Positions 54,433-56,045 of a stretch of 64,000 nucleotides of DNA are shown here, in pieces. Below the pieces are notes generated by a model. That model ran no database searches and was not told where the DNA came from. It saw only the letters and a list, made by a program, of their open reading frames with translations. The first letter of the stretch is position 1; each line of letters starts with the position of its first letter. The position numbers were made by a program, and so were the translations under genes. Source of the stretch: an uncultured Bacteroidales bacterium (GTDB lineage Bacteria > Bacteroidota > Bacteroidia > Bacteroidales > FEN-979); NCBI GenBank assembly GCA_903945175.1, contig CAJAUM010000115.1, positions 975 to 64,974 of the forward strand. The letters are read 5' to 3'.

Positions 54433-55488
54433 ATGAGCGTTGAAACATTTGTTACCGATAAAGCCGGCTTGATCACATTCTATGAAGCCATCATGGCCAG
54501 TCACGAAACCTATGCCCCGGTCGAGAAATTCGGCAAATTTGATTTTAAGCAGGTGAAAAGCCTGGCGGAATGTGACCCAGAATCGCCCATTGCAAAGACC
54601 CAGAGCATCAAGCCCCTTTTCTTCCCCAGGTCGGCCAAGGTGATGAAATATGTTGCCACAAGCACAGGAACGGAAGTTTCGGAGGTTGATGAGGATCCGC
54701 TTGCCGTTAAACGCGTCATCCTGGGCGCAAAACATTGCGATGCCCGTGCATTGCAGGTTCTTGACAAGGTATACAACTGGGATTACATCGATACCGATTA
54801 CCAGAAGCGCCGGGAAAATACTGTGATTATCTCGACCCGTTGCGACAAGGCTGACACCCATTGTTTCTGCACTTCGCTCGATTACGATGTTGAAAATCTC
54901 AATGCCATGGATGTTTTGGTTGTACATGGATCCGATGGAAAGGTTTACATCAAAGCCAGGACAGAGAAAGGTTCTACACTTTTAAATACAGAGGTCACGC
55001 GTCACGCGTCACGTGTCACGGAAGAAGCCGCAGCACCCGACCTGAAAAAGCAATACGAAGCCTTTGCGGGTTCTTTCAGGCTTAAGATGGATTATTCGGA
55101 GGTTAATTCAAAATTGTCGAAGATCTTCGACACCCCGGAATTTGAAAATGTCTCGGGAAATTGTGTGAGCTGCAACACCTGTGCCTTTGTTTGTCCGACC
55201 TGCCATTGCTTCAAAATCTCCGATGAAAAAATCAAAGATACAGGGTTGCGATATAAAAGCTATGACTCCTGTAACAACGGATATTTTACCCTGATGGCGG
55301 GCGGTCACAATCCCCGTCCGGCCAAGTACCGTCGCTGGCGGCAGCGTGCCATGCACAAGTTTGTATACTACAAGGAGCGCTTTGGCGAGAACCTTTGTGT
55401 GGGGTGCGGTAAATGTACCATAGCCTGCCCGGTAAACATCAGTATTTTTGAGGTGGTTAATCAGGTGGCAGTAGGCAGTAGGCAATAG
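54433..55488 (+). CDS. flxB: AsrA / sulfhydrogenase-beta-like 4Fe-4S protein (FlxB-like) with an in-frame heptamer insertion and a repeat-encoded C-terminus
   Basis: [16 protein letters not shown] and [12 protein letters not shown] motifs. The last 7 codons and the TAG stop lie in the GGCAGTA array. Confidence 0.65.
54994..55021 (+). repeat. Heptamer tandem array (GTCACGC x 4, last two degenerate) inside flxB
   Basis: gtcacgc gtcacgc gtcacgt gtcacgg read directly. Translates in frame as VTRHASRVT. Confidence 0.95.
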
Positions 55489-55627
55489 GCAGTAGGCAAT
55501 AGGCAATAGGCAGTAGGCAGTAGGCAGTAGGCAGTAGGCAATAGGCAGTAGGCAATAGGCAATAGGCAGTAGGCAATAGGCAGTAGGCAGTAGGCAGTAG
55601 GCAATAGGCAGTAGGCAATAGGCAATA
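55467..55627 (+). repeat. Heptamer tandem array, 23 units (13 GGCAGTA + 10 GGCAATA)
   Basis: Counted unit by unit. 161 nt with no spacers. It ends 6 nt before the ATG of the four-helix-bundle gene. Confidence 0.97.
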
Positions 55628-55633
55628 AAGGGG

Positions 55634-56020
55634 ATGGAAGTGGAAAAGAAAAAAATTGTTTCCTATAAAGATCTTGAGGTCTGGAAAAAGGGGGTCCGAT
55701 TTACCATTGAAATCTACAGAATTACCAGCGAGTTTCCAAGTAGGGAACAATTCGGGCTTACCAATCAGTTGCGCAGGGCCGCATCCTCTATCCCTGCCAA
55801 TATTGCAGAAGGATATGGTCGTGAGAGCACGAAAAATTATATTCAGTTCCTTAAAACTGCCAGAGGTTCATTGAATGAAGTCGAAACTTTTCTTTATATA
55901 GGATTTGAATTGGAATATCTTAATAAACAAACCCTTGACAACTTGATTATTAAAACCACTGAACTTGGAAAAATGATGAATAGCCTGATCAAAAAACTAA
56001 ACCCTAACCCCACTGCCTAA
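55634..56020 (+). CDS. Four-helix-bundle protein (23S rRNA intervening-sequence protein / Avd family)
   Basis: [10 protein letters not shown]...[30 protein letters not shown]...[16 protein letters not shown] are hallmark motifs of the family. Confidence 0.9.
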
Positions 56021-56045
56021 TGCCTACTGCCTATTGCCTATTGCC
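56011..56045 (-). repeat. Inverted copy of the GGCAGTA/GGCAATA array (5 units)
   Basis: cactgcc taatgcc tactgcc tattgcc tattgcc. Its reverse complement matches array units 13-17 (55551-55585) at 33/35 positions. It contains the TAA stop of the four-helix-bundle gene. Confidence 0.95.

Follow-up and report, generated by a model that had tools for sequence, protein, structure and literature searches.

A candidate IVS-type cassette, an IVP/S23p gene between inverted heptamer arrays, in the hdr-flx operon of an uncultured lake Bacteroidales bacterium

The 64,000-nt stretch of DNA analysed here (the window; contig CAJAUM010000115.1, positions 975 to 64,974) comes from an uncultured lake Bacteroidales bacterium and holds an hdrCBA-flxDCBA operon, in whose only large gap, between flxB and flxA, sits a gene for a 128-aa four-helix-bundle protein of the 23S_rRNA_IVP/S23p/TIGR02436 family (IVP hereafter), enclosed by tandem heptamer arrays of opposite orientation. 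Our best reading of this arrangement is an intervening sequence (IVS)-type selfish cassette in an mRNA, namely a promoter-less IVP/S23p gene with its own inverted short-unit arrays, lodged in an mRNA operon and forming a stem that RNase III would cut; we put the probability of this reading at about 0.6. The S23p/IVP family came to light in 1993 through genes within 23S rRNA intervening sequences, and heptamer arrays have been reported as cyanobacterial short tandemly repeated repetitive sequences (STRR, 1990) and as long simple sequence repeats (LSSRs, 2007). The function of the former and the abundance of the latter are two decades-old puzzles that are physically coupled in one cross-phylum cassette architecture. 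Sequence comparisons indicate that this architecture is general and that it ties the IVP family to bacterial heptamer arrays.

The cassette, its arms and its protein

The hdr and flx reading frames overlap or are separated by gaps of at most 15 nt throughout, save for 597 nt between flxB and flxA, as had been described in a first-pass annotation of the window made from its letters alone. That annotation had placed in the gap 23 heptamers ending shortly before the start codon of an inserted open reading frame (ORF), five reverse-complement units behind it and the stop codons of both flxB and the inserted ORF inside the arrays, and all of these details were reproduced: the left array consists of exactly 23 heptamers at 55467-55627 and ends 6 nt before the ATG, the right array at 56011-56045 matches left units 13-17 at 33/35 positions, and the stops are the flxB TAG at 55486-88 and the TAA of the inserted ORF at 56018-20. 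Left units 5-9 match the right array equally well (33/35) and units 19-23 at 31/35. A repeat search extends the right arm to 56009-56046, so that the ORF is enclosed, as in an IVS, by inverted repeats capable of a long stem (38-nt arms, 92% complementarity). The features of the operon and the cassette, in window coordinates, are these:

49583-50152: hdrC (ORF call and Pfam content)
50164-51108: hdrB (ORF call and Pfam content)
51108-53081: hdrA (ORF call and Pfam content)
53081-53569: flxD (ORF call and Pfam content)
53566-54417: flxC (ORF call and Pfam content)
54433-55488, + strand: flxB, the host gene upstream (Fer4_22, E=5e-30)
55467-55627, + strand: left (5') arm of 23 heptamers, 13 GGCAGTA and 10 GGCAATA; sense strand G-rich
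55628-55633, + strand: AAGGGG spacer between array and start codon
55634-56020, + strand: 128-aa four-helix-bundle ORF of the 23S_rRNA_IVP/S23p/TIGR02436 family, ATG at 55634
56009-56046, + strand: right (3') arm of ~5 TAYTGCC units, reverse complement of the left; sense strand C-rich
56047-56085, + strand: A-rich unique flxA leader, outside the cassette, conserved at locus L010
56086-56919, + strand: flxA, the host gene downstream (FAD_binding_6, NAD_binding_1, DHODB_Fe-S_bind)

The left array supplies the final seven codons of flxB together with its TAG, and the C-terminal tails of flxB differ in cassette-free relatives. Purine-rich spacers such as AAGGGG also occur in orthologues (TAGGAGG, TGAGGG). 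Tandem Repeats Finder (TRF) counts 22.6 copies in the left and 4.7 in the right array; both are series of at least three head-to-tail copies of a 5-11-nt unit, and they share with LSSR/heptamer arrays a copy number that varies between strains. Depending on the sample, the left array of one and the same species holds 23, 21, 19 or 18 units, the window's 23-unit arm being the longest of 31 left arms examined. The suspicion that the arrays might be an assembly artefact is contradicted by an identical protein in 75 blocks of public assemblies and by its position at this locus in 19 of the 19 contigs read (five places shown).

Across the whole window, no inverted repeat other than the cassette arms has a length of 40 nt or more together with a complementarity of 80% or more. 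The arm-arm duplex was calculated at -71.7 kcal/mol, against -22.5 +/- 4.6 kcal/mol for shuffled arms, and the minimum-energy structure of 55440-56080 folded as RNA pairs both arms, in line with the stem predicted in the first pass. The idea that left units are selected to present TAG in every frame, as a stop-codon insulation, was dropped because a stop triplet in 18/31 units against 48% expected from shuffling is not significant.

A Bacteroidetes-type TAnnTTTG box lies upstream of hdrC at 49541. A promoter/terminator scan found no + strand terminator-like site between flxB and flxA and no promoter or terminator signal inside the cassette above shuffled expectation, and no Rfam family matched 54800-56400 at E<=1. 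No reverse transcriptase (RT), transposase or integrase is present among the ORFs of the window, as noted from the start. If the IVS-type reading is right, the cassette would be expressed through read-through transcription from the promoter-like box of the operon (49541); in the RNA, its arms would pair as a duplex of ~35-40 bp, looping out the ORF, and RNase III would cut this stem as in the homologous 23S rRNA IVS. Such a cut would free the IVP message and separate hdrCBA-flxDCB from flxA. Since the long left array offers several near-equivalent registers, slippage could alter which units pair and shift the distance of the stem to the start codon. As an observation apart, a Bacteroidetes-type -7 box (TATTTTTG) at 55443-55450, within the conserved last flxB codons (SIFEVV) and 17 nt before the left array, could be a chance match or an internal promoter for whatever lies 3' of flxB.

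The assignment of the protein to the IVP family, initially made by eye, holds against profile models: PF05635 is matched at E=1e-40 (138.5 bits vs a cut-off of 33.8), TIGR02436 with 136.1 bits (cut-off 24) and NF008911 with 142.7 bits (cut-off 137). A family search returned >7,700 clusters at E<=1e-10. Among solved structures, phmmer places XCC0516 of Xanthomonas (2GSC, E=1e-21) and BT_0352 (2RLD) nearest. The AlphaFold (AF2) model comprises four helices (pLDDT 93.3) and was aligned by Foldseek to 2GSC with a TM score of 0.86/0.94 (rmsd 0.9) and to 2RLD with 0.74-0.76; the next best match after 2GSC is Avd (4DWL; TM 0.76/0.90, ~12% identity), a protein of diversity-generating retroelements (DGRs). 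Avd is a pentameric barrel that binds nucleic acid and RT, and by homology to it the IVP protein may bind repeat RNA or DNA, a suggestion to which we attach low confidence. The motif RxxxSxxxNxxE is found as R48-x3-S52-x3-N56-x2-E59, and R47, R48, N56, E59 and G60 are invariant across 40 homologues; the family motif given in the literature is GxxRxxxSxxxNxxE (PMC3936711), the leading G of which is not at the published spacing in this protein. Orthologues show dN/dS ratios of 0.06-0.13, and intact copies of the gene are under purifying selection. No PADLOC defence-system model matched at E<=0.01.

Empty sites, transfer and occurrence elsewhere

Orthologous sites were compared through a FlxA scan with one genome per species, which gave 80 loci, mostly from metagenome-assembled genomes of uncultured freshwater Bacteroidales (Prolixibacteraceae-like). 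About 65 related species carry no gene at all between flxB and flxA. Six species are occupied, namely that of the window and five with a homologous gene of 73-88% identity, and these five share GGCARTA left and TAYTGCC right arrays. At the occupied site of L010 a premature stop has made the gene a pseudogene, and L012 retains a remnant in which both arrays flank an internal deletion, leaving the first few codons joined to the last ~fifteen. Compared with its relative L034, L036 presents a precise empty site, ...GAGTACTTTG|CCTCATATAAATAAC, from which arrays and gene are absent from the first unit to the last, with a 2-3-nt ambiguity (TTG / CC) against the filled site and no clear duplication. 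The boundaries of the cassette are the outer ends of its arrays. The comparison of orthologous loci, which had been suggested as a check, has thus yielded an empty site, and the relatives that bear the gene bear the arrays as well; together with the remnant and the pseudogene, the ~65 empty species and the cut of L036 exactly at the outer array ends support the early proposal of a discrete cassette.

In a neighbour-joining tree of flxB+flxA, occupied loci are confined to one subclade and interspersed with empty ones, a pattern that would fit one old gain and many losses. Recombinational transfer also occurs, since nucleotide-identical cassettes are found in diverged hosts and the nearest neighbours of flxB and flxA are discordant. 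For instance, the IVP genes of L034 and L035 do not differ by a single nucleotide, and across L034, L035 and L166 identity amounts to 94-100% in the cassette against 61-86% in the adjacent flxB; between L035 and L038 the flanks are ~95% identical, with the cassette in one and an unrelated spacer in the other; and the window species has an occupied nearest neighbour by flxB and an empty one by flxA. The identity values indicate a recent spread of the cassette among diverged hosts at this one site, and other loci carry it as well. This excess of cassette over flxB identity, along with close relatives carrying GGCARTA/TAYTGCC arms at a different locus, favours the mobile unit that had been offered as one interpretation of the insert. 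In L166 and L167 the right arm has 10 vs 4 units, and gains and losses of array length come in whole units.

The different locus lies between a divergent tRNA gene and meaB. In two related Bacteroidales (L169, L170), proteins 71-74% identical to that of the window are encoded there between GGCAATA-type left and TATTGCC-type right arms. A Bacteroidetes-type -7 box (TAnnTTTG) stands directly upstream of the left arm, so that the arrays would fall in a 5' untranslated region (UTR). A third copy at the tRNA-meaB site, in L086, is 65% identical and has diverged units (GGCACAA/GGGATGA), its arms being still complementary. Because the copies at this site keep like arms and the diverged arms of L086 have remained complementary, the arms are part of the cassette, moving and evolving together with it.

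Well beyond this lineage, scanning metagenomes with the protein brought up 80 loci with homologues 40-65% identical, from soils, peat, sediments, lakes and the sea. An array census compared 46 evaluable IVP genes with 1001 control ORFs of the same loci:

Tandem array of 5-10-nt units at most 250 nt upstream: 38/46 IVP genes, 130/1001 control ORFs
Array downstream: 33/46 IVP genes, 150/1001 control ORFs
Arrays on both sides: 28/46 IVP genes, 34/1001 control ORFs
Arrays on both sides with reverse-complementary units: 20/46 IVP genes, 1/1001 control ORFs

The control figures are inflated, because the control set includes neighbours of IVP genes. The flanking arrays sought around paralogues and more distant homologues are thereby found. 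Units of 7-8 nt are typical of the 38 upstream arrays, the median is ~4.4 units per arm, and a relaxed criterion yields 34 loci whose arms pair near-perfectly over at least 17 nt. Unit pairs vary by locus (AGGGTAT/CCCTATA, GGAGTCG/CGACTCC, AGTAGTG/CACTACT and the octamers GGCAGGTC/GACCTGCC), and left and right units of the same locus match at 5.94/7 positions vs 4.31/7 across loci (permutation p<=5e-5). On the sense strand, G exceeds C in 30/31 left arms and C exceeds G in 25/28 right arms; this constant polarity is, at the level of sequence, the chief hint that the constraint is tied to one strand, i.e. to the transcript. Both neighbours are co-directional with the gene in 26/37 cases, and a same-strand gene ends at most 150 nt upstream in 30/38. 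Related IVP genes sit after at least 10 different host genes with unit families shared, and the host contexts include acyl-CoA dehydrogenase and nuoC|nuoD (twice, with differing units). The two nuo loci, L110 and L164, come from different metagenomes and have the units GGCAGTC and AGTAGTG, each complementary to its own right arm; either an orthologous insertion has co-evolved its arms, or the same spacer has been used repeatedly.

The gene with both arms is also present on five closed plasmids, from cultured members of Nostoc, Anabaena, Geminocystis, Picosynechococcus and Riemerella:

Nostoc ATCC 53789 plasmid: GGGAAAA/TTTTCCC
Anabaena sp. 90 plasmid, cas6|IVP|cas4: GGTGACA/TGTCACC
Geminocystis NIES-3709 plasmid: both arms
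Picosynechococcus PCC 7003 plasmid, cmr2|IVP|cmr3: both arms
Riemerella anatipestifer plasmid: AAGGTTC/GAACCTT

In a sixth plasmid, Nostoc PCC 7120 gamma, there is a right arm only, with an insertion sequence (IS) element upstream. Two viral or proviral contigs (L177/L178) have the both-arm architecture, their right arms counting 4 vs 5 units.

The flxB-flxA spacers that lack an IVP gene have features of their own. In nearly all IVP-less Bacteroidales relatives (L006-L073), the spacer consists of species-specific tandem units of 7-9 nt, for instance AATGCAGG, CAATGCAAA, TGCTGATG, AATTCAAT, ATTTCGCT/ATTTCACC and GATGATGT, and several others of these spacers hold GC-rich palindromes (CCCCACCCC...GGGGAGGGG). 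Direct arrays are plentiful in the IVP-less spacers and significant inverted pairing is rare. In Firmicutes flx operons the genes overlap and leave no spacer; short-unit arrays number 2.05 per 10 kb across the related loci vs 0.97 for those of Firmicutes. The spacer of L048 and L075 holds an inverted pair without a gene, (AAAGCGA)x4 ... (ATTTCGCC)x3, and L170 encodes at 2165-2590 (- strand) a second, distant IVP paralogue with arms of the GGCGAAAT / CATTTCGCC type. Because of the arms of this paralogue, gene-less pairs may be scars of another cassette type.

Known systems and rival explanations

The 23S rRNA IVSs of Leptospira, Coxiella burnetii, Brucella and Haemophilus are nearest to the cassette: they share the protein family and an ORF inside inverted repeats with a long stem, the ORF lies in the sense orientation of a strongly transcribed host RNA, and their distribution is sporadic with signs of horizontal transfer. 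The comparison draws on the literature, because an rRNA motif scan detected no rRNA-embedded copies among the fetched loci. In the Coxiella 23S IVS, an S23p ORF follows two to three tandem GACAGAT heptamers whose number is strain-dependent, the two ends of the element lie within a stem that inverted repeats form, and the RNase III cut falls where the first repeat begins (Warrier et al. 2016; PMC4990558). Its authors termed it a selfish, horizontally acquired element, with an S23p ORF apparently untranslated and decaying (PMC4990558). Heptamers of variable copy number thus stand directly 5' of the start codon and inside a stem, here a predicted one, in both elements, with 23 units here and 18-23 among samples, and the architecture matches that of the one IVS with mapped RNase III cleavage; the notion of an IVS-like element living in an mRNA operon, one of two offered in the first-pass annotation, is strengthened by this likeness. 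Unlike the rRNA IVSs, however, the cassette is located in a protein-coding operon and not in helix 25/45 of 23S rRNA, its arms are pure tandem arrays, the left one very long (23 units), and, whereas cleavage was mapped in Coxiella, the cassette is known from its sequence. As it is like an IVS but lies outside 23S rRNA, we file it as an IVS-type variant in an mRNA operon.

Published heptamer or LSSR arrays (Xanthomonas, Nostoc, Beggiatoaceae, STRR) resemble the arms in being 7-nt tandem units that lie between co-directional genes, often touch stop or start codons, typically number ~4 and vary in copy number, with convergent pairs frequent in Xanthomonas. Rehm et al. (2015) described Xanthomonas GGGAATC arrays between co-directional genes, with ~4 units preferred and 70 convergent pairs, as well as GGGGAYT arrays in Nostoc (PMC4692102); a four-unit GGGAATC array begins 6 nt after accB (XCC0517) and overlaps the annotated XCC0516 start (PMC4692102 supplement). 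XCC0516, downstream of this published array, is the crystallised IVP family member, and the IVP gene family is absent from the text of that paper (PMC4692102). TAACTGA arrays directly precede start codons in Beggiatoaceae, Cyanobacteria and Bacteroidetes; a translational role was proposed for them and the mechanism of their spread was not evident (MacGregor 2015; PMC4679880). In these studies, none of which links the arrays to IVP genes, they were treated as stand-alone G-quadruplex or translational elements, whereas here complementary pairs surround one gene family. A link between IVP genes in general and flanking inverted arrays was not found in the full-text literature, subscription-only papers lying outside the search, and appears to be unstated there. 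Furthermore, IVP genes were located between cas genes by Zhang et al. (2013; PMC3936711), an association that cassette insertions would explain, as cas6|IVP|cas4 and cmr2|IVP|cmr3 carry arms of the cassette type.

Several points weigh against an IVS-type cassette processed in mRNA. Arm mismatches are of the G-U type in 35 and of the A-C type in 36 cases; this test gave no RNA-specific signal, and there is therefore no wobble signature favouring RNA over DNA-level pairing. Complementarity could equally be maintained at the DNA level, via hairpin ends, arm-to-arm conversion or descent with concerted evolution. RNase III cleavage of any mRNA-borne cassette is inferred by analogy with the rRNA IVS, and since the Coxiella ORF is decaying whereas the ORF here is under purifying selection, the two elements may not work alike. 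Cleavage between flxB and flxA should carry a host cost, which is unexplained. Ordinary homologous recombination could account for the spread at the same site, the window holding no mobility enzyme, and 8/46 family genes are without an upstream and 13/46 without a downstream array.

Some of these points agree with an element whose arrays act in DNA, as recombination or hairpin ends comparable to the terminal inverted repeats of IS elements and of MITEs (miniature transposable elements with inverted repeats), to attC or to IS200/IS605 hairpins, moved by an enzyme acting in trans or by slippage, with the RNA stem incidental. We consider this unlikely. The L036 deletion is precise at the base of the would-be hairpin and shows TTG microhomology, cassettes at many host sites have unit families that travel with the gene, near-identical cassettes reside in diverged hosts, and G-U mismatches are not in excess of A-C. 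As in integron cassettes and MITEs, there is one ORF or none, the inverted repeats are imperfect, transcription comes from the host, and many sites are used with gain and loss between close relatives. In contrast to those elements, the arms are arrays of evolving units with no conserved terminal sequence, and neither the window nor the inspected flanks contain a transposase, integrase or HUH enzyme or a recognisable target-site duplication. The strict G-rich-5'/C-rich-3' polarity and the embedding in co-directional operons point instead to a transcript-level constraint, and the stem of the homologous rRNA IVS is a demonstrated RNA substrate (Coxiella, PMC4990558). Movement in DNA and processing in RNA are not exclusive of each other.

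A host regulatory module, in which the arrays, with or without the protein, tune flxA against hdrCBA-flxDCB via mRNA processing, stability or translational coupling and array length acts as a rheostat or phase switch, would account for the array length differing between samples and for the 7-9-nt arrays in the same spacer of almost all Bacteroidales relatives, gene or not, and translational roles have been proposed for heptamer arrays directly upstream of start codons (PMC4679880). It is nevertheless quite improbable, given that the gene is patchy, and pseudogenised or deleted in close relatives that retain the operon, that the same cassette type stands in unrelated operons (nuoC|nuoD, acyl-CoA dehydrogenase, cas operons, accB) and that inverted arms are specific to IVP-bearing spacers. 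An orphan Avd accessory gene of a DGR is a very remote prospect: Avd of Bordetella phage BPP-1 (PDB 4DWL, 8UBE) has the same four-helix-bundle fold, to the Foldseek scores of which a weak PF22296 match can be added, and the solved Avd and its stand-alone relatives are homopentamers, but the Avd-specific models failed (equivalog NF033474, 30.6 bits vs a cut-off of 80; PF22296, 28.2 vs 40). No RT (RVT domain) was present among the ORFs of the window or in the called-gene tables of the inspected related loci, there is no pair resembling template and variable repeats, and no dispersed repeat of at least 40 nt besides the arrays exists in the 64 kb. To our knowledge, Avd genes of DGRs are not bracketed by inverted heptamer arrays. 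Least credible of all is coincidence, that is, an array-rich lineage with a hot spot in the flxB-flxA spacer, where an unrelated small gene came to lie between two arrays. The window does hold eight short-unit arrays, some within coding regions, and the related loci are dense in them; coincidence is refuted, however, by the census of complementary arrays and by the left/right unit match, and the architecture recurs in cyanobacteria, Flavobacteriia, soil and peat metagenomes and viral contigs.

Extending the IVS-type reading, we tentatively suggest, as a conjecture that may well fail, that IVP cassettes form a widespread, unrecognised mobile or selfish class able to colonise any strongly transcribed spacer (rRNA helices, operon spacers, 5' UTRs), whose decay products, meaning gene-less inverted array pairs and solo arrays, could explain many heptamer repeats (cyanobacterial STRR/GGGGAYT, Xanthomonas GGGAATC, those of Bacteroidota and others), with a pentamer binding or processing the repeats. 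Predictions that follow from the coupling of gene and arrays are RNase III cuts within operon mRNAs at the arrays, a repeat-binding pentamer, and gene-less inverted arrays as cassette scars. For annotation, such cassettes would commonly lie behind broken contigs and changed C-termini of host genes.

Other arrays and reading frames in the window

Two ORFs on the - strand, of 666 aa (246-2246) and 236 aa (2351-3061), have no Pfam match at E<=0.001. Two of the further short-unit arrays lie in frame in genes of the same strand. The IspG/GcpE-like ORF 13235-14482 includes at 14024-14113 a 90-nt array of CGTGACG heptamers arranged as 21-mers, which looks like an insertion of repeats that an essential enzyme tolerates, and the TsaB-like ORF 14502-15251 includes at 14873-14939 an array of CATTGGT x9.6 (TTGGTCA in the other register) that encodes MNDQLQMTDDQLPMTNDQLPMTNGQ. 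An array of TGACGAA/TGACGAG x6.4 at 19421-19470 runs across the stop of the gene for the a subunit of ATP synthase (18190-19428) and occupies the spacer ahead of the c-subunit gene (19504-19764); this array is solo, with neither a partner arm nor an IVP gene.

Within flxB itself, GTCACGC x3.9 at 54994-55020 is in frame in a linker (VTRHASRVT) and conserved in close relatives, and in other lineages the FlxB linker has different heptamers (GCAGTCG/GCAGTCA). The same GTCACGC unit recurs at 3762-3783, upstream of mlaE, and ispG contains its complement. Lastly, an array of CAATGGC x3.7 at 37028-37056 lies inside the nuo operon (32050-42023), ~60 nt before the nuoL start (37114).

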